Origin: Candidatus Thorarchaeota archaeon
Lineage (GTDB): Archaea; Asgardarchaeota; Thorarchaeia; Thorarchaeales; Thorarchaeaceae
Reading direction: 5' to 3'
Assembly (NCBI GenBank): GCA_016933575.1
Contig: JAFGAR010000028.1
Location: forward strand, 32,001-96,000
DNA length: 64,000 nucleotides
Under the pieces are notes generated by a model that saw only the letters and a program-made list of their open reading frames with translations, was not told the DNA's origin and searched no databases. Position numbers and translations under genes: made by a program. Shown here piece by piece: positions 1-11,475 of the stretch (positions are counted from its first letter, which is position 1; every line of letters begins with the position of its first letter).

Positions 1-197
1 AAGATTTTCGTACCAGCAACCCAGTTAATCAAGTACTTTGCAAAGTCGTTTATTTCGGGATGTGATTTTGACTGTTCCCATGCTTTGAAAGCTCCAATCC
101 CATTGGCTCTTGTAGAGTCCTTTTTGAAATAGAGCATGAGAACGCTACTTAATTCTAGCATCATGAATACAGCGATTGCAACAACAATGAGACTCAT
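1..197 (-). CDS. Partial hypothetical membrane protein (runs off the window start)
   Basis: Manual translation from ATG 197: MSLIVVAIAVFMMLELSSVLMLYFKKDSTRANGIGAFKAWEQSK..., open to the window edge; hydrophobic N-terminus; not in ORF track. Confidence 0.7.
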   Translation of the reverse strand, partial: MSLIVVAIAVFMMLELSSVLMLYFKKDSTRANGIGAFKAWEQSKSHPEINDFAKYLINWVAGTKI

Positions 198-424
198 TCC
201 TTATCTGTAGATAGTGGCACCATAAATATCTAGTCGTATTATTTGGTATGGATCTATCAAACTATAGTTATTTTTTTTTTGCCTCATCGCAAATTTAAAT
301 ACCAATGAGCTCTCGTATATTCTAAATTTAGCTAGAGAGATTTCCCCGAAAATAGGGATTGAAGAGATGTATGCTGTTCAAAACATTATACAAGTTCAGA
401 TTTGTGGGTTGAGAGATTCATTGG

Positions 425-1378
425 GTGATTGAGTTGAGTAAGCAGAAGTATATACGTCAGTATAGATGGTCCAACGTCTTGGCAATGATGCAAGGTGGAG
501 CAAAAGAGCTAAAAGAGTGTACTGATGATTTTAAAGGACGATTAGTTGTTATTACAGGAGCAACATCAGGAATAGGGTATGCAGCCGCAAGAGAGTATGC
601 TTCACATGGCGCGAATCTTCTTCTCATTAATCGAAGCGAAGAAAAATCAATTGCTCTATGTGACGAGATACGTCAAGAATTTCAAGTAGAATGCGATTAT
701 AAGATTGCAGATTTTTCGCGATTGACTGAAGTACGTAAAGTGGGAAAGGAAATTCTATACTCAGACCTAGACATCGATGTTCTTATCCATAATGCTGGAA
801 TTTATTCAACAAAAAAGATAATCACTGAAGATGGTAATGAACTGGTCTTTCAAATAGACTATCTTGGTTCTTTCGTGTTGAACTACATGCTTAAGGACAA
901 ATTGAAAGCACAAGGAAAAGCGCGTATCATCTTCGTAAACTCAGAAGGTCATCGCTTTGCTGTTTTTGGCATTGGTCTACATGATCCCACCTATGAAAAA
1001 CGTCGACATTCCGGTCTAGGAAGTTATGGTGTTGCGAAAGCAGCCCAACTTCTTTCAATGATAAAATTTGTTGAATATTTTGAGGGTAGCGGAGTTACTA
1101 TTAATGCCATTCATCCAGGAAATGTCAAGACTAATAGTGGTTCACAAAATGGTCGAATATATCGCTGGTATAAGAGAAACTTGATTGATCGTTCAGCGAA
1201 AGACCCACAAATATCTGCAACTGCATTGTATTATCTTGGCGTTTCAAAAGAGATTGAAGGCGTAAGTGGCAAGTTCTTCAATCTCACAAAGGAGGAAGAA
1301 CCTGCGCCTCCATCCTTGGACAGGGAGGTAGCAGAGGAGCTTTGGCATAAATCAATTGAGATGGCGGGATTAGAATGA
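425..1378 (+). CDS. SDR family oxidoreductase (retinol dehydrogenase-like)
   Basis: TGATSGIG Rossmann motif, HNAG, YGVAK (YxxxK), HPG. Confidence 0.9.
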   Translation: MIELSKQKYIRQYRWSNVLAMMQGGAKELKECTDDFKGRLVVITGATSGIGYAAAREYASHGANLLLINRSEEKSIALCDEIRQEFQVECDYKIADFSRLTEVRKVGKEILYSDLDIDVLIHNAGIYSTKKIITEDGNELVFQIDYLGSFVLNYMLKDKLKAQGKARIIFVNSEGHRFAVFGIGLHDPTYEKRRHSGLGSYGVAKAAQLLSMIKFVEYFEGSGVTINAIHPGNVKTNSGSQNGRIYRWYKRNLIDRSAKDPQISATALYYLGVSKEIEGVSGKFFNLTKEEEPAPPSLDREVAEELWHKSIEMAGLE

Positions 1379-2970
1379 GTAAAGACAACCATAGAACAAT
1401 TATTGTCGGCGGCGGAATGTCTGGAATAACCGCTGCAGTTTACTTAGCAAGAGCGGGTCATGATGTTCTCCTACTAGAGAAAAACAAGGAATGCGGCGGA
1501 CTCCTCAATTCATTTCAACGCGAAGGATTCACCTTTGATGCAGGAGCGCGATCAATTCTTAATGCTGGAATAATCCATCCAATGCTTAGAGAACTTGATA
1601 TTGAACTTGAATTTCTTGAAAGTCCAGTATCGATAGGAATCGAGAATGATATTATCAACCTTACGCCTGAGAATGCTGTAGATGAATATCGAAAATTGCT
1701 GGAAAGACTGTATCCAGAGAGTGCAGAGGACATCAAAGTGGTAATCTCAAAAATTGAGAGCATCATGAAAGACATGCAGACGATGTATAAAATTGATAAT
1801 CCAAACTTTCGGGAACAAAAAGATGGAGCCTATCTAAAACAGCTTCTAGGTTGGCTACCTGGATTCATCAGGGTCTTAGGTCGAATGGGCAAACAGAGCG
1901 AACCCGTTGAATCATATTTAGCAAAATTGACTTCAAATCAATCCCTAATTGATATTATAGCCCAGCATTTCTTCAAGAAGACTCCAACCTCGTTTGCCTT
2001 GGGTTACTTCTACTCCTATACTGACTACATCTATCCAAGAGGAGGCACAGGTGAGCTACCAAAAGCCTTGGTGCAGAAAATCATCGAGTTTGGTGGAAAA
2101 ATACAAACTGAAACAGAAATAACTGGAGTCAATCCTTCTGAGAAAGAAGTCAGAGACAAAAATGGTAACACGTATTCGTATGATACACTCATATGGAGTG
2201 CAGATTTAAAGACACTATACAGAATATTAGAATTAAATAATTTTGAAGAAAAGGATTCTCAAGAAATCCTGGAACAAAAGGAACTTCTTCTTTCAAAAAG
2301 AGGCTGTGATTCTGTATATTCATTATTTGTAGGTGTAGATGCACCTCTAGAGGAATTCAGCTCCAAATCAAACGGACATTTCTTCTATACACCATCGAAA
2401 CAAGGTCTTGGCGAAACGCACTGGTCTGAACTTGACTCTTTGATTGAGAATTTTGAAACGAAATCAAAGGATGATATTCTTCAATGGCTGGACAAGTACT
2501 GTCAATTAACAACATACGAAATTTCAATCCCTGCATTTAGAGATCCCACATTGGCTCCTAATGGCAAGACTGGTGTAGAGATAAGCATGCTATTCGAATA
2601 CGATTTGTTGAAGAAGGTTAAAGATGCAAATTGGTATGAAGAATTCCAATCTGAGGTAGAAAACCGTATGTTGGATGTTCTTTCCAATTCCATATATCCA
2701 AGTCTGAGAGATAAAGTACTCTTTCAATCATCATCAACACCACTCAGTATTGCTAAAATTGTAGGGACTTCAGAAGGAGCGATTGTGGGTTGGTCTTATT
2801 TATCACCTGTTCCTGTTGTAGACAATCTCAGAAAAATTCCTAGCTCCGTACTGACACCTATTCCTAATGTGTACCAAACAGGACAATGGGCCTATAGCCC
2901 AGCAGGTTTGCCTACAGCAATTATCACTGGTTGGAATGCTGCTCAGAAGATAATCAAGAAGAAAAAATGA
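1375..2970 (+). CDS. Phytoene desaturase (CrtI)-family FAD-dependent oxidoreductase
   Basis: IIVGGGMSG, EK..GG, FTFDAG, YPRGG, C-terminal TPIPNVYQTGQW; 4-bp overlap with the SDR gene. Confidence 0.85.
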   Translation: MSKDNHRTIIVGGGMSGITAAVYLARAGHDVLLLEKNKECGGLLNSFQREGFTFDAGARSILNAGIIHPMLRELDIELEFLESPVSIGIENDIINLTPENAVDEYRKLLERLYPESAEDIKVVISKIESIMKDMQTMYKIDNPNFREQKDGAYLKQLLGWLPGFIRVLGRMGKQSEPVESYLAKLTSNQSLIDIIAQHFFKKTPTSFALGYFYSYTDYIYPRGGTGELPKALVQKIIEFGGKIQTETEITGVNPSEKEVRDKNGNTYSYDTLIWSADLKTLYRILELNNFEEKDSQEILEQKELLLSKRGCDSVYSLFVGVDAPLEEFSSKSNGHFFYTPSKQGLGETHWSELDSLIENFETKSKDDILQWLDKYCQLTTYEISIPAFRDPTLAPNGKTGVEISMLFEYDLLKKVKDANWYEEFQSEVENRMLDVLSNSIYPSLRDKVLFQSSSTPLSIAKIVGTSEGAIVGWSYLSPVPVVDNLRKIPSSVLTPIPNVYQTGQWAYSPAGLPTAIITGWNAAQKIIKKKK

Positions 2971-2991
2971 ACTGAAAATGGAGAGATATTC

Positions 2992-3411
2992 ATGTCTGAA
3001 GTTGACAAACTAAAAAAAGGCGTTGGAAAACGTTTGATTCCTTGGGGAATCCTTAGTATCATAGTTGGACTCATAATGTATTTTGGTCTGCCAAATACAA
3101 TTCTGGGTGGTATTGGTCTTCAGGCACTGATCTGGGGATCAATTGATGTAATCATTGCATTATCCATTATCTATAAACAGAAGGAACAATCAGTCACGAA
3201 AATAGCCAAGACCGTATCAGGTAGTATAAAGGTGGATATTCTCGTTCAGATCATTGGACTTGTCATCATCGTGATATTCTTTCAAAATCCATTCTATATG
3301 GGTAACGGAATCGGAATCATCATTCAGGGATTCTTTCTCCTTCTTCTAGACAGTTCTTACCTGAAATCACTAAGGATTCTTGAAACAAAAATTGGAACTC
3401 AAGACACGTGA
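2992..3411 (+). CDS. Hypothetical membrane protein (about 4 TM)
   Basis: Four hydrophobic segments; GGAG RBS upstream. Confidence 0.75.
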   Translation: MSEVDKLKKGVGKRLIPWGILSIIVGLIMYFGLPNTILGGIGLQALIWGSIDVIIALSIIYKQKEQSVTKIAKTVSGSIKVDILVQIIGLVIIVIFFQNPFYMGNGIGIIIQGFFLLLLDSSYLKSLRILETKIGTQDT

Positions 3412-3472
3412 TTAGGAATTCAAATGAAAAGAAAGAGAGAAGTCCTATATTTCACATAGGTCAGCTGGTTTA

Positions 3473-3754
3473 TTATTTGCTAACCTTTTTTCGCTGAGCT
3501 GAGAGTCTTTTCATCAAGGCGATTGCATACGAAATTAGTAGCATTGCAAAGTATAACATCGTGATGATTGGGTTTGTGAAATTGGCTCCAATCAGGAAAC
3601 CGTGGACAAAAGCGAAGGTGAGTACAATATACATCAATCCGTGGACGACACGCCAGTACTTTTTCACTCTGTTTCGCAATAACCCAGCGAGTATGGCAAT
3701 ATATACCAAATAGAGTGCAGGTCTTCCAGCTAGGCTCCAGAAGGTATACCATGA
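3473..3754 (-). pseudogene. C-terminal remnant of a ferric-reductase-like (heme b) membrane protein
   Basis: WRVVH...FVHG His pair in TM helices; the 5' end runs directly into HEPN-derived sequence. Confidence 0.55.
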
Positions 3755-4060
3755 CATTCCTAAGTTTAACAAGCTCGACAAGATTACTACCGAGATTCTT
3801 GTCAGTTACACCATGGTTGGTAATGATTTCAATCGTATCTCTGTAAGTTTCAGGTGTACCCCAATGATGATGTGCTATAAGATGTGTGGCAATATCAATG
3901 ATAGATTGTGTGGCAATCTGAAAACTTCGTTCAATAGCAAGTTGCTAATCCTATTCTTTAGGAAATCTTCCTCTTCTATTGCAGCACCTGTTTTGAGAAG
4001 TTCAATCGAAGTCAGTATCTTGTCAAGCTTCATCTTTACTGATTGCTGGTCAAATGTCAA
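3742..4060 (-). pseudogene. HEPN/DUF86 toxin pseudogene (frameshifted, truncated)
   Basis: Frameshift near 3945; shifted frame reads QLAIERSFQIATQSIIDIATHLIAHHHWGTPETY...VKLRNVMVY, paralogous to 8125-8541. Confidence 0.85.
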
Positions 4061-4066
4061 AAGTTC

Positions 4067-4468
4067 TCACACTCCAATCGATTGCTTGAGGTAATTGTCG
4101 ATGTAAATATTCCAATCAGGATATCTTATCAAAACGTATTCTACATAAGTTTGCCAAACTTCCGTATCATGCGCATAAAGGACTCTTCCATAATGTAAAA
4201 CTCTAAATTGAAGGGTGAATGAAGCCATGTTCAATAATGTCACATCAATGTGGGGCTCTTCAGATGAGTCAAAAAGTGAAAGGACTTCACCGAATATAGC
4301 AGGATATTGATCTTCACTTTATGATACCCTAAAACCAATATCAATATCGCTTTGTGGATGAGTGGTTCCAGTTGCAGTAGAACCAAAAAGGACAATGAAT
4401 TCCAGATCATCACATAATACTTTTTTAATTCTAGCAACAATCCTTTTGAGCTTCCTGTCCGAACTCAT
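4067..4468 (-). pseudogene. MNT nucleotidyltransferase antitoxin pseudogene
   Basis: FIVLFGSTATGTTHPQSDIDIG...YPDWNIYIDNYLKQSIGV, paralogous to 8547-8957, with an in-frame TAA at codon 50 (4319-4321). Confidence 0.9.
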
Positions 4469-4546
4469 GCATCTCTTTCTCCCAAAGATTTGTCATTTAA
4501 ACAACATAGAATGTTAACATATAAAGTCGAAGGTAATTCAATCTTC

Positions 4547-4590
4547 AAAAGAAAAAGGGATGGAAAGAGGTGCGATTAACGCATTCTCCT
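4547..4590 (-). repeat. Cassette-boundary repeat copy R6 (hairpin plus pyrimidine tract on the minus strand)
   Basis: Plus strand AAAAGAAAAAGGGATGGAAAGAGGTGCGATTAACGCATTCTCC. Confidence 0.7.
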
Positions 4591-4616
4591 TCAAATCCAT
4601 GAACATAGTTGTTCGA

Positions 4617-5000
4617 TTATCTGCGATTGTGTTCTTCAGCAGACATATCAATTGTAGAATTTATCTCAACAATTGGGGTTCCAGCTTTTTCAATTGTGCC
4701 AAACTTACCAGATTGAAGTCTTATATTTCCCTTGAAGAGACCTACATATCCATTAGTTAGAGTGTAGGTTTCGCCTTCTTTCAGAGTATCAATAGTTTCA
4801 TTCCAGAATGGCATTTGAATTGTACCTGTAGAATCGCCAACTCTAGCATCCAAGACACGGTGTTTTTGACTGTCACTACGGGATTCGACTGTTCTTTCTT
4901 CACCAGTGCTCATGACCTTGAAGGTTATGTTTACACTTTTCATTCCGGGCTTCAGCTCGGCTATTGTAGCCTCGATGGCTTCGATCTTAAAATCTGTCAT
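4617..5000 (-). CDS. ssb: Single OB-fold single-stranded DNA-binding protein (crenarchaeal SSB/RPA type)
   Basis: IAELKPG..VN, VGDSTGTIQMPFW, NGYV..FKG..RL motifs. Confidence 0.85.
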   Translation of the reverse strand: MTDFKIEAIEATIAELKPGMKSVNITFKVMSTGEERTVESRSDSQKHRVLDARVGDSTGTIQMPFWNETIDTLKEGETYTLTNGYVGLFKGNIRLQSGKFGTIEKAGTPIVEINSTIDMSAEEHNRR

Positions 5001-5175
5001 AATGTATCACTCGCTCTTGCGAATTCAGGTCATTGAAAACTAGGGTAACTTCATGTGGAAGTACAAGAAGGTCGTTAATCCTCGATAAAACCAGTGTTAA
5101 AAGTTTGCATAGTTATTATGCCTGTACTACCGAGCTGCAGAAGTTTGCTTATAGTGTTATGTATCTTGCAGTAGG

Positions 5176-5198
5176 AAAAGAAAGAGGAATGGAAGGAG
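5176..5198 (-). repeat. Repeat copy R5 (truncated)
   Basis: AAAAGAAAGAGGAATGGAAGGAG, 23/23 identical to 8077-8099. Confidence 0.8.
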
Positions 5199-5296
5199 AA
5201 AGGAATCAAATCCCACTTGTAAAACTTCTATTATTGAAAACTAAAAACGCCGATTAATTAAAATAAGTAAACAGGTATAGAAAAAGGAGGAGGAGT

Positions 5297-7477
5297 GTGA
5301 TTTTGAAACAGCAAAATACTGTACTCAAGCTATTACTTGTATGCCTATTTCTCAGCTTTTTGTGGTCAAATATTCCAAGTTCAATTCAATTTGGTATATC
5401 GAGTCACATTAACAATCATGAAGATGACGTAAATGAATTCATAGGTTTTGATGGTGCTCTAATCTCAGCTGAAACTGAAGAAATCAAGATATCAAATCCT
5501 ATTTGGCTTAGGACATATGGTCCAAATTGGGCTACCAATAACATCGAAGATATTATCGAATGCGCTGATAGTGGATTTTGTATGTTAGGAACGCTAGGCA
5601 ATCCAAACGATGTAGGTTATTTTCCAGATGCAATTTTGTTGAAAACAGATTCGAATGGAAATCAGCTCTGGAATCGAACATATGGACGAGATGATATGGC
5701 CTACGAGTCGGTTCACAACGTTATCGAATGCTCAAATGGGGATTTCGCTTTTGTGGGATCACAGTATGTGTTGGGTACAGACGAATTTCACAGTGGATGG
5801 TTGGTTCGTGTTAATTCAAGCGGTTTTTTGACTTATAATATTACATATCCAGCTGCGCGCGAGTTAGTAGGAATTTCTGAACTTTCAGATGGAAACTTCT
5901 TCATATGTGGGATAACACCGGGAAGAGATGTTTTCATAATGAGAACAGATGAGAACGGGACCATTAAATGGAGCCTTCCATGGGAGCTATTTCTTGATGA
6001 TGAAGTCACAGATATGATTGAATACAGTCCCGGTGAGTTCATTATAGCAGGATATTCATATGATTCCAGTATGATGGTATGGATACCATTTCTATTCAAG
6101 ATCGACCAAGATTCTATGTTTTCTTGGATTAAATTCTATACACTCCTCGGAAGAGTGTATTGTAACTCAATTCTAAAGCTAGATTCAGGTGGAATCCTGA
6201 TGACAGGAATGGCAGTAACTAGCTCTATCGATTTATGGTTTTGCGAAATTGATGAGAATGGTAATTTCATCCGCGAGGCACGACTGCCTAATGAAATTAA
6301 TTATCCACCTAATGATATCATTCAATTAGAAGAAGGCGGTTTTGCAGTTCTTACTAGTTCTAATAGCATTAATCTTGTTAATGCGCAGTATGAACCAATC
6401 GGTAATATTCGATTCGATTCTATTACAGGTAATTCATTCATTCAGTCTGAAAATAAAGAGTTTGTAATTGGAGGTTCAATGAGAATCGAAAATAACTACA
6501 CTCTGACTATAATCAGAGAACCTTTCCTCTGGTGGAATCATTCTGTTATCAACATCCAAGCAGAATATTTGCAGTCGATTTCCCGTGACTTCAATGCTAC
6601 ATGCAGTCAGGGTATTGATAAGTGGACAGTGAATGCGACTGAGTTCTTTGATATCGATTCAAATGGAGTTCTTGGAAATAATTCAATTTTGAATGTTGGA
6701 ACATATCCTATCAAGATAATTGTGAATGATACTTTAGAAAACACTCTAATACAAGAATTTCTAGTAACAGTAGAAGACACGACTTCACCTGAGTGGGTGC
6801 AAGCTCCAGAAGACCAAATTTTAGAACTTGGTACAGATTTAAACTACTCTCTCTATGCTTTTGATCCATCAGGTATAGGAAGTTGGTCTATCAATGCATC
6901 AGGTCTATTTAGCATTAGTTCTGAGGGAAAAATTAACAATGTTAAGCCATTAGAAATTGGAACCTACGGATTAATGGTTACTGTTGAAGATATCTATGGA
7001 AACGATGTTAACGCTGAATTCACGCTTACAGTTACTGATTCAACTGCTCCGATATGGCTCATCTCTCCAAGCAATATTATAAAGAATGAGGATGAATCTA
7101 TACAGTTTTATTTTGTTGCGAGTGACCTTTCTGGGATAGATGCATGGATTTGTAATGACACTACTAATTTCCAAATTACTGATGAGTCATCGCATGATGC
7201 AAGTTCATGTCTATTTACAAATGCGACCATATTGAATGCTGGGTCCTATGGTCTCAACCTAACTGTAACTGATTTATGGGGTAATAAGATCTCATCAATT
7301 TTCAGAGTTACAATAATTGAGATTCCAGAAATATCTGTATCTACAACGACTACTTCTACATCAACCACATCACAGACATCGGATGAATTTCTTCAACCAG
7401 TTGTACTTCTTGCAGCTGGTTCTGGTTGGATTGCTACAATCTTTGTAATCATCATCATGATGAAACGACGAACCTGA
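5297..7477 (+). CDS. Membrane-anchored surface protein: beta-propeller-like repeats plus three Ig/cadherin-like domains
   Basis: Signal peptide; repeated D.NG...W..TYG motifs; repeated V.D..GN and DTT.P.W; Thr-rich linker; C-terminal TM ending KRRT. Confidence 0.8.
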   Translation: MILKQQNTVLKLLLVCLFLSFLWSNIPSSIQFGISSHINNHEDDVNEFIGFDGALISAETEEIKISNPIWLRTYGPNWATNNIEDIIECADSGFCMLGTLGNPNDVGYFPDAILLKTDSNGNQLWNRTYGRDDMAYESVHNVIECSNGDFAFVGSQYVLGTDEFHSGWLVRVNSSGFLTYNITYPAARELVGISELSDGNFFICGITPGRDVFIMRTDENGTIKWSLPWELFLDDEVTDMIEYSPGEFIIAGYSYDSSMMVWIPFLFKIDQDSMFSWIKFYTLLGRVYCNSILKLDSGGILMTGMAVTSSIDLWFCEIDENGNFIREARLPNEINYPPNDIIQLEEGGFAVLTSSNSINLVNAQYEPIGNIRFDSITGNSFIQSENKEFVIGGSMRIENNYTLTIIREPFLWWNHSVINIQAEYLQSISRDFNATCSQGIDKWTVNATEFFDIDSNGVLGNNSILNVGTYPIKIIVNDTLENTLIQEFLVTVEDTTSPEWVQAPEDQILELGTDLNYSLYAFDPSGIGSWSINASGLFSISSEGKINNVKPLEIGTYGLMVTVEDIYGNDVNAEFTLTVTDSTAPIWLISPSNIIKNEDESIQFYFVASDLSGIDAWICNDTTNFQITDESSHDASSCLFTNATILNAGSYGLNLTVTDLWGNKISSIFRVTIIEIPEISVSTTTTSTSTTSQTSDEFLQPVVLLAAGSGWIATIFVIIIMMKRRT

Positions 7478-7508
7478 AGATGAAATGAAAATTAGATAAA
7501 AGCAAGAG

Positions 7509-7547
7509 AAGAAAGGGGGATGGAAGGAGTGTGACAATTGCACTCCT
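7509..7547 (-). repeat. Repeat copy R4
   Basis: AAGAAAGGGGGATGGAAGGAGTGTGACAATTGCACTCC, with a GGAGTG/CACTCC stem. Confidence 0.8.
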
Positions 7548-7555
7548 TTGAAGTA

Positions 7556-7990
7556 TCAAAAAGTCTGTGTAGAGTAAGGACCTCTATACTCCATAAAAAA
7601 GACAATGCCTGCCAAGATTGCCACGACTCCAGCTATGATTGCTGGAGAAGTTGCTATGACTCCTAATGATCCCTCAAGTTGCCCTGCGAACATGAATGCT
7701 ACGAGTATTGTAATGATTCCAAAACACACGCCAAAACAAGGAGTTCCCTGGATTCGTTGGCCTGTGTCTTGTCGAATTTCTACATCACCATAGGAACCTA
7801 CTGTTCTGAAGACTGCCATCATACTCCCACTACGAGCAAACAATGCTCCGATGATCATTACAAAAGCAAAGACTCCGGAAGCCATAGCAGCTATTCCATC
7901 TCCAAATCCCACAATGCTAATTATGAGTTGGATAGTGCAGAGGAAGAATGCAACCACAAAGAGCAATGCACTTTTCATTGAACCAGCCAT
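7556..7990 (-). CDS. Hypothetical 4-TM membrane protein
   Basis: Four hydrophobic helices; repeat R4 lies immediately after the stop. Confidence 0.7.
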   Translation of the reverse strand: MAGSMKSALLFVVAFFLCTIQLIISIVGFGDGIAAMASGVFAFVMIIGALFARSGSMMAVFRTVGSYGDVEIRQDTGQRIQGTPCFGVCFGIITILVAFMFAGQLEGSLGVIATSPAIIAGVVAILAGIVFFMEYRGPYSTQTF

Positions 7991-8076
7991 TCAAAAGACC
8001 ACCAATCGTTTTGTACTAAAAAAGAAAAGCTTCCACTCTAATGAATATATTCCTACAAATATATCCCATATAATCT

Positions 8077-8120
8077 AAAAGAAAGAGGAATGGAAGGAGT
8101 GCGACAGGCTCACCTGAGCA
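8077..8120 (-). repeat. Repeat copy R3
   Basis: AAAAGAAAGAGGAATGGAAGGAGTGCGACAGGCTCACCTGAGCA. Confidence 0.8.
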
Positions 8121-8124
8121 GATT

Positions 8125-8541
8125 TCAGATGAACTTCAGAATTGCATCAGCAAACAATTTTGCATCAATGATAATTGCTATTGCACTTTGATATACTATG
8201 GTGGGGTCTACGGCTATATATAGATGAATAAGTATGTTCCTCAGTTTAACAAAATCAATCAATCGGTCTGCGAGGAGAGAATCAATAATCTTGTGATTGG
8301 CAATTATCTTTACAGCATCACTATATGATTTTGGAGACCCCCAATGATTATGTGCTACTAGATGAGTACAGATATCGATAATTGCTTGAGCGATAATCTG
8401 AAGATTCCTCTCTATTGCACCTTGGAGTAGCTCATCTTTCAAATATTGCTCTTGAGTCATAGTTTCAATGTGTTTGATACGAGTGACTCGTTCGAGAATG
8501 ATATCTAATCGTGCTTTCACAACTAAGGGATCTACAGCCAT
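8125..8541 (-). CDS. HEPN (DUF86) RNase toxin
   Basis: AIERNLQ and RNILIH (Rx4H) motifs; probable start MAVDPL at 8541, just after the MNT stop. Confidence 0.9.
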   Translation of the reverse strand: MAVDPLVVKARLDIILERVTRIKHIETMTQEQYLKDELLQGAIERNLQIIAQAIIDICTHLVAHNHWGSPKSYSDAVKIIANHKIIDSLLADRLIDFVKLRNILIHLYIAVDPTIVYQSAIAIIIDAKLFADAILKFI

Positions 8542-8546
8542 TGAAA

Positions 8547-8957
8547 TCACGCCCCTAGAGATTGTTTCAAGTAGTTCTGTATGTAGTACTCCCAATCTGG
8601 ATACCTCACAAGAACGTATTCTTGAAAACAGGGCCAAACTTTGTCATTCTTCGTGTATAGAAGTTTACCATCACGAACCACTCTGTACTGAAGTGTGAGA
8701 TCTGCAAGATTAAGAAGAGTAACGTCAATCTTCGGAGAATTCTCCTTATCTACGTAATCAAAGAGGGAGAGCAGATCACCAAAGATTGTCTGCAATTCCT
8801 TCTTCGGATTGCTTACTTGAACGCCAATATCAATATCACTCTGTGGATGGGTATTTCCTGTAGACATAGAACCAAAGAGAACTATGAAGTCAACTTGTTC
8901 ATCAAGTTCATTTCTTATCTGTGTGACGATATCATCTAATAGCTCGTCTTGATTCAA
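8547..8957 (-). CDS. MNT minimal nucleotidyltransferase antitoxin
   Basis: LFGSMSTG...SDIDIG (GSx10DxD); directly upstream of HEPN. Confidence 0.9.
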   Translation of the reverse strand: MNQDELLDDIVTQIRNELDEQVDFIVLFGSMSTGNTHPQSDIDIGVQVSNPKKELQTIFGDLLSLFDYVDKENSPKIDVTLLNLADLTLQYRVVRDGKLLYTKNDKVWPCFQEYVLVRYPDWEYYIQNYLKQSLGA

Positions 8958-9008
8958 AGAGTCACGTTCCTTAGCATTTCATATACAGTAATTGAAATAT
9001 TCTCGCTG

Positions 9009-9029
9009 CATATAAACTCGAAGGTAATT
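9009..9029 (-). promoter_or_regulatory. Putative TATA-containing promoter of the MNT-HEPN module, duplicated at 4518-4538
   Basis: CATATAAACTCGAAGGTAATT vs CATATAAAGTCGAAGGTAATT (20/21); reads TTTATATG on the minus strand about 50 bp before each MNT start. Confidence 0.6.
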
Positions 9030-9040
9030 TGCTTGCTGAG

Positions 9041-9082
9041 AAAAGAAAAGGGAGGGAAGGAGAGTGACAAGCACACCCGAGC
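9041..9082 (-). repeat. Repeat copy R2
   Basis: AAAAGAAAAGGGAGGGAAGGAGAGTGACAAGCACACCCGAGC. Confidence 0.8.
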
Positions 9083-9089
9083 AATGTTG

Positions 9090-9659
9090 TCAGACCCGGT
9101 CTATCAATTTCTTTGACTCAGAATCTTTCAGAAATTGCTCAAGTTTATCGAGAATACCTAGCATTTCACATGTGGAGCGTATATACTCAAAATCGAAACT
9201 TTCTGAATTTCTATTTAAAATGCCAAGAGCATCTCTAAGATCTTGCTCTCCTTGAAATAGGATTTTATTAACATAAGTGTCTTCAATAGAACCAATCCTA
9301 ATAGATGTGCCAAATAGATTGACATCGATAGCTCTTTCAAGTGTCATCTTATCAAAAGCTGAATTTACACCTTGTATGTCAAGTCTAAGTAACGTATCCT
9401 TGAAGAAAATAGTACTATGAGATTTCTCTGCGAAAGCTGCTCTGATATCGGTTGCAGAGGATGAAAACCCTCTTGAATTCAGAAATTGTGTGAATGTTGA
9501 AATTTGTTCATCTTCTATTTGCAATATAATGTCAATATCTACGGTAGTTCGAGGGACACCATGGTACATTACTGCTACTCCACCAACGATAACATACTCT
9601 ATCTTATTCTTATTGAGAAATTCACATACTAATTTGAGAATCTCTGGAAATTCTTCCAT
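9090..9659 (-). CDS. Nucleotidyltransferase, DUF6036/AbiEii-like (putative toxin)
   Basis: VIVGGVAVMYHGVPRTTVDIDI motif; K....EQDLRD near the C-terminus. Confidence 0.8.
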   Translation of the reverse strand: MEEFPEILKLVCEFLNKNKIEYVIVGGVAVMYHGVPRTTVDIDIILQIEDEQISTFTQFLNSRGFSSSATDIRAAFAEKSHSTIFFKDTLLRLDIQGVNSAFDKMTLERAIDVNLFGTSIRIGSIEDTYVNKILFQGEQDLRDALGILNRNSESFDFEYIRSTCEMLGILDKLEQFLKDSESKKLIDRV

Positions 9660-9812
9660 CTATCTATCACCTGCTATTCGTAGAGCTAACGCAGACAATT
9701 TCAGGCCCATAATTAGTGTTTCAAGACCGGTATATTTTCTAGCTTCGATTGCTGTTCTTATCTGATCGAGGTCTCTCCTGTGCTTCACTTGATCTGCAAT
9801 CGAGCTAGCCAT
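9660..9812 (-). CDS. 50-aa protein, putative partner/antitoxin of the downstream nucleotidyltransferase
   Basis: MASSIADQVKHRRDLDQIRTAIEARKYTGLETLIMGLKLSALALRIAGDR*; its TAG abuts the next ATG (TAGATG); not in ORF track. Confidence 0.7.
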   Translation of the reverse strand: MASSIADQVKHRRDLDQIRTAIEARKYTGLETLIMGLKLSALALRIAGDR

Positions 9813-9871
9813 ATCATTCCCACACACCACTAGTAACTACTCTACTCATATATTCTACTATTCATAATTTG

Positions 9872-9909
9872 AAAAGAAAAGGGAGAGAAGGAGTGCGACC
9901 AGCGCACCC
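9872..9909 (-). terminator. Repeat copy R1, probable terminator of the hdr-mvh-vhuU operon
   Basis: Minus strand GGGTGCG-CTGGT-CGCACTCC hairpin, then TTCTCTCCCTTTTCTTTTC. Confidence 0.65.
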
Positions 9910-9920
9910 TTGCGGGGTGT

Positions 9921-9957
9921 GTCAAGCCCGGCTCAGTTCTTTACGCCGGACCTTCAT
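9921..9957 (-). promoter_or_regulatory. Eukaryote-type SECIS element
   Basis: AUGA-AGGUCCGGC-GU-AAAGA-AC-UGA-GCCGGGCUU-GA: AUGA/GA core, 9-bp helix plus 2 bp, apical AAA; about 80 nt after the in-frame UGA. Confidence 0.85.
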
Positions 9958-10106
9958 CCGCCGCCAGTCACGAGCTCCTTCCGGACTATCTCGCGGCCAT
10001 CCTCATCGACAACGACAAGGTGTGCGCCGCATGATAGTCAGCAGTCATAGCACCGAACCACCATTTCCAGGAGGTTCAGTAACCCTTCAGGGATTTCTTC
10101 TGACAT
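9954..10106 (-). CDS. vhuU: Selenoprotein VhuU, separately encoded C-terminal peptide of the [NiFeSe] hydrogenase large subunit
   Basis: MSEEIPEGLLNLLEMVVRCYDCULSCGAHLVVVDEDGREIVRKELVTGGG*; UGA at 10038-10040 sits at the Ni-ligand position of the L2 motif; the upstream large subunit lacks that motif. Confidence 0.92.
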
Positions 10107-10158
10107 TGTAGTTCACGTTTCCTTTTTGTTCTTTATAACTCTGAGGTATGGTTGTTTT

Positions 10159-11475
10159 CTATGTCTTGACCATAGGGTCGGGGAGTTTCAGGCTCTCATG
10201 GGCCTTGTCCTCGAAGATCTGCTTCGCTGCTACCATCAGGCTCTTCTCAATACCAGCGATGTTATTATTTGTCGCCACAATGAGATTTGCCTTCACTAGC
10301 ATTCCCTTATCATCGCTGACGTAGTTGTGCAAGAGAGTCCCTCGTGGAGCCTCTACAACGCCAACGCCTTCGCCAGCCTTGGTTTCGACATCAGCAAGTT
10401 TTACATCGGTGCTTACAATTTCTGGATCTTCAAGAAGAGTCTTGATCCACTCTGCAGCCTGTACCATCTCGACAACCCTAGCATAATGATAAGCAAACAC
10501 ATGATGAGATGGACGACCAATCAGATCACGCATTTCTTTTAGTGCGTCATTTGCAAGTGGAGTAGCCATCTTATCTACTACATTGCATCGAGCAAGAGTG
10601 TTGGTTCTCCAGATACCCTCAGGATATCCTGCGGGTTTGTAGTAGATGTGAGTTGCATAGCTATGCTTCGGGACATGTTCTCCATAATACTCCGTGTAGT
10701 CCTTTGGCTCGAAATCAGCGACAATCTTTCCATCAGGGTCCATAACGCGTATCTTGCCATCATAGATGTCGAGAGCACCTTTGTTATGTAGTCCAATGTA
10801 GTAAGTAGGTGTTACTCCAACTTTTGTTATTACATCAAGATATGCATTAACGACAGTCTTCGCAAGATCCACTGTCTTGTTGATATTCTCCATCAACTCA
10901 GGTACACGACCAAGCCAGTGGTCACGATCTTCCTCGGTCATGGGAGTGAGCTGCCCACCGGGAATTGCTGTGGTTGGATGGATTGCCTTTGCACCGACAG
11001 TCTTGATAATCTCTTGACCAAACTCCATGAGTTTGATAGCCTGCACGGCAACATCTGGAAGATGTTTCAGGACCGCAGCCACATTCCTGACTGCAGGATT
11101 GGCAAATGGGCCAAACACAAAGTCAGGAGCAGCAAGAGCATAGAAGTGGATAGCATGACTTGAGAGCTGCTTTGCCTCAATCATGAGTCTTCTTATCTTT
11201 ACTGCTGCTGGTGGAGGAGTAATATCCCAAGCAGCTTCAACAGCCTTTACTGAGGCAAGATGGTGAGGAATTGGACAGATTCCACAGATTCTCGGAGCGA
11301 TTCGAATAGCCTCCTCCATTGGGCGGCCCTCCAGGAACTTCTCAAAGAATCGAGTAGAGTTTACATTGAATTGTACATCCTTGACCTTTCCATCCTTTCC
11401 TAGTTTCAGCGTGAGTGAACCATGTCCTTCAAGCCTTGTCACTGGGTCGATTCTAATTGTCTTCTCGTCAGTCAT
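10159..11475 (-). CDS. mvhA: Group 3c [NiFe(Se)] hydrogenase large subunit lacking the L2 motif (VhuA type)
   Basis: DPVTRLEGH, RFFE, RICGICP, VEAPRG.L.H; no DPCxxC at the C-terminus. Confidence 0.95.
   Translation of the reverse strand: MTDEKTIRIDPVTRLEGHGSLTLKLGKDGKVKDVQFNVNSTRFFEKFLEGRPMEEAIRIAPRICGICPIPHHLASVKAVEAAWDITPPPAAVKIRRLMIEAKQLSSHAIHFYALAAPDFVFGPFANPAVRNVAAVLKHLPDVAVQAIKLMEFGQEIIKTVGAKAIHPTTAIPGGQLTPMTEEDRDHWLGRVPELMENINKTVDLAKTVVNAYLDVITKVGVTPTYYIGLHNKGALDIYDGKIRVMDPDGKIVADFEPKDYTEYYGEHVPKHSYATHIYYKPAGYPEGIWRTNTLARCNVVDKMATPLANDALKEMRDLIGRPSHHVFAYHYARVVEMVQAAEWIKTLLEDPEIVSTDVKLADVETKAGEGVGVVEAPRGTLLHNYVSDDKGMLVKANLIVATNNNIAGIEKSLMVAAKQIFEDKAHESLKLPDPMVKT

Follow-up and report, generated by a model that had tools for sequence, protein, structure and literature searches.

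In the Candidatus Thorarchaeota archaeon studied here, the UGA that ends the hydrogenase gene vhuU is at the same time part of the AUGA core of a hairpin element, and we consider it very probable that this element is the vhuU SECIS, of the eukaryote-like Asgard type, and that the position of a UGA relative to it sets whether Sec is inserted or translation stops. The overlap of stop codon and SECIS in Asgard vhuU has already been published (PMC4989117, 2016; PMC11227280, 2024). Two further points, namely that the hairpin is one arm of a three-way junction and that the element is linked to an array of downstream gene cassettes, may go beyond published work as far as the texts of that work extend. 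The genome is a metagenome-assembled genome (MAG) of 3.47 Mb that is 86% complete and rated 6.9% contaminated, and the nearest relatives of its VhuA are found in Candidatus Thorarchaeota MAGs. The window, by which we mean the whole stretch of 64,000 nucleotides that was analysed, carries the following features of the gene and its hairpin:

10159..11475, minus strand: vhuA, hydrogenase large subunit without the C-terminal Ni-ligand segment (open reading frame list and Pfam PF00374)
9954..10106, minus strand: vhuU coding sequence, 153 nt including the stop, 50 codons plus stop, translated with TGA=U
10040..10038, minus strand: Sec codon UGA (codon 23), which takes the place of the first Cys in the C-terminal CxxC..H Ni-ligand motif
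9957..9954, minus strand: AUGA core of the SECIS, its UGA (9956..9954) being the vhuU stop codon
9924..9953, minus strand: upper hairpin of the SECIS (fold and covariation)
9922..9923, minus strand: 3' GA of the presumed tandem G.A/A.G quartet (sequence)

The vhuU gene starts 52 nt 3' of vhuA, with genes for VhuG, a Cys-type MvhD and HdrA paralogs lying upstream, and runs from an ATG at 10106 to the UGA at 9956..9954. The original prediction of a 153-nt reading frame with a recoded UGA about 80 nt upstream of the terminating one was borne out, the spacing of the two in-frame UGAs being exactly 84 nt. The Sec codon is embedded in the motif YDC-U-LSCGAH and lies 83 nt 5' of the AUGA core and 55 nt 5' of the base of the folded element (9982). 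Alignments indicate that the product is the Sec-bearing C-terminal Ni-ligand segment of a split [NiFeSe] hydrogenase large subunit. The 50 amino acids of VhuU align to the extreme C-termini of MvhA, FrhA and related [NiFe] hydrogenase chains in the PDB and span the second Ni-ligand motif, and the best PF00374 (NiFeSe_Hases) stretch of VhuA covers only the N-terminal profile positions 1-79 of 508.

During maturation of [NiFe] hydrogenases a C-terminal propeptide is removed from the large subunit, and the 21 residues of VhuU that follow His29 are probably such a propeptide. This reading is consistent with a match of VhuU to the solved 27-amino-acid chain 9sfi_M ('F420 non-reducing hydrogenase subunit'), which ends at about the His. 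Since the tail is likely to be cleaved, its codons may matter more for the structure of the RNA than for the mature protein. A second mvhD-vhuG-vhuA cluster was found in the same genome (C57:234506-237140, minus strand), with a VhuA that is 70% identical to that of the window. This VhuA also stops before the C-terminal Ni-ligand segment, and no vhuU was seen within about 600 nt after it; perhaps the cluster relies on the one vhuU in the window, or perhaps it is incomplete.

The gene ends GGA-UGA, with GGA as the final sense codon, and the terminal UGA with its preceding A forms the AUGA core at 9957..9954, as the original prediction had it. The same A-UGA opens a stem of 9 bp (9953..9945 with 9932..9924), two of them G-U and none mismatched, which carries a 12-nt apical loop (9944..9933) starting with GUAAAG, where the apical AAA had been noted, and is closed by GA at 9923..9922. 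The additional claim that the element is of the eukaryotic and not of the methanogen GAA/A type held at the level of the motif. The motif pattern agrees with it, and the methanogen GAA_A bulge is absent from both the fold and the sequence of 9870..9996, whereas the Rfam eukaryotic SECIS models gave no support. At E<=10 no SECIS family, including the eukaryotic ones, was matched in 9850..10120, where only chance-level mir-200 and P18 matches appeared, and at gathering thresholds no Rfam family was matched in the whole window. The absence of an Rfam match agrees with the reported failure of SECISearch3 on such elements. The label eukaryote-like is thus applied here by motif pattern.

With eukaryotic SECIS elements the vhuU element has in common the AUGA...GA core with adenines some 11 nt further on, a lower helix underneath it, and the presumed action at a distance on an upstream UGA. 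It differs in having a shorter upper stem and an extra hairpin in the 3' side of the internal loop, and in not being located wholly in the 3' UTR, since the core is the stop codon and the 5' strands of the lower helices (9982..9962) are coding. Compared to the SECIS of Methanococcales and Methanopyrus, it is likewise an archaeal 3' element that serves the same vhuU and vhuD genes, but it is without the GAA_A asymmetric bulge flanked by GC clamps; for methanogen vhuD, a SECIS with AUGA and GAC/AAC beside an extra stem has been reported (PMC4989117).

The arrangement is conserved in related organisms. A first search found GGA-UGA, a hairpin and GA or AA in 26 of 28 relatives, and of 400 Asgard genomes searched in six frames with VhuU, 208 had Sec-type vhuU orthologs containing a single in-frame TGA. 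We examined the 3' end in 76 Sec-type genes from many genera, a sample that favoured high-scoring matches and that comes from related genomes, so that the counts describe a conserved trait and not independent trials. An in-frame UGA occupies the Sec position in all 76, and in 71 the stop is the core UGA, located 84 nt after the Sec codon or, in two genes with an insertion, 96 nt. Within this group of 71 the base preceding the core UGA is A in 66 and the last sense codon is GGA in 60; the dinucleotide that follows the stem, where it could be parsed, is GA in 50 orthologs and AA in 7. Five of the 76 genes have a UAA stop with the SECIS shifted downstream, and the overlap of stop and AUGA is not obligatory.

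Covariation across Asgard vhuU 3' ends had been named in the original prediction as a check, and there the stem covaries strongly while the core is kept. Eight of the 10 pairs of the upper stem are changed on both sides in a MAFFT alignment of 26 sequences, with 85% of the cells paired; the proportion is 10 of 10 in an alignment of 77 sequences that was fitted to a covariance model and therefore leans towards that model. Judged from these sequence comparisons, the overlap of stop codon and SECIS is far more than chance. At the 3' ends of Sec-type vhuD genes (loci L103-L110, from Loki-, Frey- and Atabeyarchaeia) we observed several arrangements of the stop relative to the AUGA core: on the core UGA, as a UAG 2 nt before the core, as a UGA just before it, or as AAU-GAA-UAA running through it. 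Outside vhuU, overlap is common but not fixed.

These observations are in line with earlier descriptions of Asgard selenoprotein genes. Mariotti et al. (2016; PMC4989117) reported that the AUGA motif of Loki VhuU.1 doubles as stop codon, and deduced from the frequent occurrence of UGA stops beside the elements a minimal distance requirement like that of eukaryotic SECIS. In the lokiSECIS described by these authors, AUGA is followed by a stem of 9 bp with an A-rich loop of 11 nt, and the closure is GA, with AA instead in VhuU (PMC4989117). The Thorarchaeota element belongs to the same gene family and shares the AUGA core, the 9-bp stem, the A-rich loop and closure by GA or AA, but its loop is 12 nt long counted from GUAAAG, whereas the Loki loop has 11 nt, starts with AAAAA and ends with AG, and its closure is GA where that of Loki VhuU is AA (PMC4989117). 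For Asgard archaea, Huang et al. (2024; PMC11227280) noted frequent overlap of UGA stops with the AUGA motif, and reported that G[U/G]AAA opens the loop in most Thorarchaeia frhA and vhuU genes. The vhuU element fits the eSECIS-like type I of the same paper, with AUGA, in rare cases GUGA, and [G/A]A as flanks (GA_[G/A]A core), a stem within 7-15 bp that tolerates up to 2 mismatches, a loop within 8-20 nt and early adenines through the G[U/G]AAA start (PMC11227280), and it lies 3' of a gene of a known selenoprotein family that has an in-frame UGA at the conserved Cys/Sec position.

The hairpin described in the original prediction stands, but the whole element appears to be larger, with a predicted three-way junction that takes in 26 nt of the coding sequence. 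Its arms may be a lower (C) helix in which the last codons pair with the 3' UTR, an upper hairpin with AUGA/GA (NC helix), and a side hairpin. In the structural model the additional parts are:

9975..9982, minus strand: 5' strand of helix H0, within the coding sequence (Arg-Lys-Glu codons), 8 bp with 9893..9886
9962..9971, minus strand: 5' strand of helix H1, within the coding sequence (Val-Thr-Gly-Gly codons), 10 bp with 9904..9895
9905..9919, minus strand: side ('T') hairpin, 5-bp stem and loop CGCAA, starting 2 nt after the GA (folds, RNAalifold, covariation)
9895..9904, minus strand: 3' strand of H1, directly after the side hairpin (fold, covariation, RNAalifold)
9886..9893, minus strand: 3' strand of H0, also the start of a pyrimidine-rich motif repeated downstream (covariation, repeat comparison)
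9870..9885, minus strand: pyrimidine/U-rich tail, probable transcript end and part of the repeat unit of the downstream array (sequence)

The 5' strands of H1 and H0 correspond to vhuU codons 42-48, which are within the last ten or so codons. Folding of 9890..9985 in isolation gives the hairpin, H1, H0 and the side hairpin, the fold of 136 nt having a predicted energy of -51.6 kcal/mol, and RNAalifold recovers the same three helices from the MAFFT alignment with no structure supplied. In that alignment 89.5% of the cells of the whole junction are paired, as compared to 41-45% after sliding of the 3' partners by 1-3 columns, and 22 of 33 pairs are changed on both sides; for H1 this is 7 of 10 pairs, and for H0 4 of 8, with 92.5% of the cells paired. 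The 77-sequence alignment, with its leaning towards the model, gives 87.6% paired cells against 36-52% after sliding, and all 32 pairs, the eight of H0 included, are changed on both sides. The side hairpin is paired in 90.8% of the cells of the 77 sequences and has a nearly invariant CC/GG core and a loop of the YGCAA type. When 71 single sequences were folded without constraints, 68 formed the SECIS hairpin, 56 the side hairpin and 53 a lower helix of 5 bp or more; the full junction was obtained in 53 as well. Duplexes of the 5' and 3' strands of the same gene are more stable than those with mismatched partners from other lineages, both in the Thor group (-27.3 vs -9.4 kcal/mol) and in the AT-rich Loki group (-10.1 vs -7.4 kcal/mol).

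The same shape was found with vhuD. The vhuU-derived model aligned SECIS-like elements in 7 of 8 Sec-vhuD loci (one Loki-, Frey- and Atabeyarchaeia genome each), and in the six alignments shown the upper and side hairpins are present in all, with several pairs of the lower helix in five; the full junction also appeared in single-sequence folds of five Sec-vhuD loci. When covariance model R1 was run over four whole genomes it retrieved vhuU-type elements only, being too vhuU-specific to detect vhuD at genome scale, but it does find the vhuD elements within the individual loci. The junction shape is common to vhuU and vhuD elements of Thor-, Loki-, Frey- and Atabeyarchaeia.

In 5' to 3' order the element consists of the lower helix, a 6-nt linker ending in AU, the G.A/A.G pairs, the upper hairpin, GAC-N, the side hairpin, and again the lower helix, which is the secondary-structure topology of a k-junction. 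The likeness to the k-junction of the TPP riboswitch (Wang et al. 2014, PMC4005666) concerns this topology only, the function being unrelated, and the linker in the bulged strand is 6 nt in the vhuU element where the riboswitch has a 4-nt loop (PMC4005666). In the main text of the 2016 paper, lokiSECIS is a hairpin only, without lower helices or side hairpin (PMC4989117). Huang et al. described for frhA a lower stem with [U/C]GG_C[C/U][A/G] pairs, and the text on eSECIS-like type I treats the region between the stems as an internal loop, with no third helix and no use of 'three-way' (PMC11227280), whereas in the vhuU element the 3' side of this internal loop is a conserved hairpin. No link between SECIS elements and three-way junctions or k-junctions was found in the literature texts, as distinct from figures and supplements.

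The 3' half of the element has a second context, which is an array of repeats that extends downstream of vhuU over 2283-9893 of the window, on the same (minus) strand. Copies of this pyrimidine-rich repeat lie near 9872, 9041, 8077, 7509, 5176 and 4547, and consist of the 3' strands of both H1 and H0, followed by the pyrimidine tail, with a short hairpin in the fuller copies. The motif is otherwise rare: of its 16 matches in the 3.47-Mb genome, 6 lie within the 7.6 kb that follow vhuU, in the orientation of the gene. One copy is of particular relevance:

9039..9080, minus strand: decayed second SECIS 3' half with side hairpin and tail (weak model match of 16.5 bits; repeat family D1)

The stop codon of a nucleotidyltransferase-like open reading frame (9090..9659) falls in this copy, which resembles the allele of other Thorarchaeota. 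The small accessory modules that are parted by the repeats encode a DUF6036 nucleotidyltransferase, a Polbeta-NTase/HepT pair, an Ssb-like OB protein and an Ig-domain protein of 726 amino acids. When 20 relatives are compared pairwise with one another, the 1.2 kb that lead up to the vhuU 3' end align over 85% on average and the 1.2 kb that follow over 6%, with a median of 0. The vhuU 3' element may be a target of recombination. A search for tyrosine integrases (PF00589) over 38 genomes gave no match on any vhuU contig, and Pfam scans of the open reading frames in 1..9900 revealed no recombinase.

Further copies of vhuU 3' ends were noticed elsewhere. In a relative, locus L004 (G027:C24) has two extra near-full copies (119-130 bits with model R1) that follow the intact vhuU in tandem, at distances of about 830 and 1390 nt; both comprise the last 13 or so vhuU codons and the whole junction. 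The genome under study contains copies at C93:1565-1687 (minus), C184:18724-18835 (plus) and C22:12645-12763 (minus), with no complete vhuU nearby; they include the last 6-19 codons and the junction, and are similar to alleles from other genera of Thorarchaeota. The gene that precedes the C93 copy is nucleotidyltransferase-like and resembles one downstream of vhuU in the window, and the C184 copy follows a gene with, by eye, a putative aminoacyl-tRNA-synthetase-like C-terminus. These three copies could be dispersed attachment-site-like remnants, or contamination, given the rating of 6.9% for this genome. The connection between the element and the cassette array is a separate lead that is worth a study of its own.

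That the functional Asgard SECIS is the whole structure of about 100 nt, a three-way junction of k-junction topology of which the 3' half doubles as recombination target in Thorarchaeota, is a tentative proposal, to which we attach a probability somewhat short of even. A rival, though in our view unlikely, explanation is that H1/H0 and the side hairpin constitute a separate 3' element, such as a terminator or an attachment site, that happens to abut the SECIS and whose own role would account for their conservation. The 3' strands of H1 and H0 with the pyrimidine tail do recur at about 9041, 8077, 7509, 5176 and 4547 without a vhuU upstream, and the gene order of the relatives breaks exactly at the vhuU 3' end, but the copies downstream resemble remnants of entire vhuU 3' ends that have decayed, in some cases with the last 6-19 codons kept, more than an independent element. 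The separate element is also favoured by an alternative local hairpin, 9908..9904 with 9898..9894, in which 87.6% of the cells are paired and three of five pairs are changed on both sides. As a replacement of H1, this hairpin was ranked second and rejected, the distant lineages having kept the long-range pairing without it. The pairing with the coding strand covaries in the completely different sequences of Loki-, Frey- and Atabeya-type elements, the three-helix geometry is the same at the 3' ends of Sec-vhuD genes in three other classes, and both RNAalifold and most single-sequence folds favour the junction. Since the downstream repeat could be a second cause of part of the 3'-strand conservation in Thorarchaeota, the separate element is kept as an alternative; the covariation in distant lineages and in vhuD argues against its being the whole story.

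The genome encodes the means for Sec insertion. A tRNA-Sec was found, genes for an EFsec/SelB-type factor (from 220550), SepSecS and a PSTK-like protein are clustered on contig C57, and SelD is encoded on C64. The PSTK-like match scores 132.9 bits, which is below the NCBIfam cut-off of 290.5, and its gene adjoins those for tRNA-Sec and SepSecS. The only selenoprotein gene that we found in this 86%-complete genome is vhuU, and others may be missing. No in-frame UGA occurs in the HdrA, MvhD, SelD and AhpC-type genes examined, and MvhD and the HdrA that was read have Cys at the usual Sec positions. Tblastn searches of the genome with MvhD, two HdrA, VhuA and VhuG of the window gave no Cys-aligned in-frame UGA, nor did a Pfam AhpC-TSA search; stops within HdrA matches are ordinary gene ends.

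A hand-written pattern (NUGA, stem, AAA loop, GA/AA) gave 121 matches in the genome that were almost all noise, from which the vhuU element, the C93 remnant and one candidate on C5 stood out. The latter, on the minus strand with AUGA at 64299, belongs to an open reading frame ending ...MFDKKIQ-UGA, which stops inside AUGA, and has a 9-bp stem, a loop starting with GUAAAG, GA, and a small hairpin following. For this reading frame we could assign neither a convincing Sec codon upstream nor a known selenoprotein family; it may be a selenoprotein gene that has gone unrecognised, or match the pattern by chance.

How the same triplet could be decoded in two ways can be envisaged from the geometry of the gene and, by analogy, from the eukaryotic spacing rule cited in PMC4989117. 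With the Sec codon (10040..10038) in the A site, the nearest paired base (9982) would be 55 nt downstream and the whole element would be intact, so that it could present EFsec with Sec-tRNA at codon 23 and have Sec inserted as a Ni ligand. On its way to the terminal UGA the ribosome would melt both lower helices, of which the 5' strands are coding, and with the terminal UGA in the A site the 9-nt 5' strand of the upper stem would be within the mRNA channel. Ribosome occupancy would unfold the element in this way, and since no SECIS would exist at the stop codon the release factor would win and terminate translation. The suggestions made earlier, that position decides between Sec and stop and that a terminating ribosome must transiently unfold the SECIS, are geometrically sound and equal to the published minimal-distance model as given in PMC4989117. 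The recruitment of EFsec, the tandem G.A pairs with a kink, and the outcome set by position are what we infer for the vhuU element. An SBP2 homologue has been reported as not found in Lokiarchaeota, and none is known in Asgard archaea according to the same source (PMC4989117).

It is very improbable that Sec is also inserted at the terminal UGA often enough to be useful, with a VhuU extended at its C-terminus as the product. Although this codon is a UGA adjoining a SECIS in a Sec-decoding organism, and a further in-frame UGA follows 7 codons on, in the apical loop, the extended frame is not conserved, its length varying from about 3 to more than 45 codons and its sequence differing between close relatives; the region is constrained as RNA, by paired changes, and not as protein, and the tail after His29 is probably cleaved anyway. 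Less probable still is a mere transcript-end or stability structure with a coincidental AUGA/GA likeness and stop overlap, which would suit a hairpin that terminates a gene, has a U-rich tract directly after it and was matched by no Rfam SECIS covariance model, but hardly the constancy of AUGA, GA/AA and the A-rich start of the loop against a freely changing stem sequence, the in-frame TGA in 76 of 76 sampled vhuU genes with the element on the stop codon in 71, the same element behind Sec-type vhuD genes, or the single Cys-form vhuU seen (L036), which has a UAA stop and, by eye, no evident hairpin of this kind after it.

Asgard SECIS elements are known from bioinformatics only (PMC11881835), and a minimal hairpin of Loki vhuU.2, with a predicted energy of -6.9 kcal/mol, gave background reporter activity in Methanococcus maripaludis (PMC11881835). 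The hairpin tested there was without the junction arms, and an incompatible host machinery could explain the failure equally well. If the junction is the real recognition unit, it bears on the failure of SECISearch-type tools with these elements. For attempts at reconstitution or searches for reader proteins, the whole junction is probably the RNA to use, with its side hairpin and the roughly 26 nt that are coding, and not the minimal hairpin.

With respect to the stop codon itself, Thorarchaeota vhuU is one more example of a published arrangement and not a discovery, and the overlap belongs to the published evidence for an Asgard origin of the eukaryotic SECIS. In one short mRNA the same triplet would mean Sec at one place and stop at another, the latter inside the recoding signal, which makes vhuU a clean natural case for the rule that the distance to the SECIS decides the outcome.
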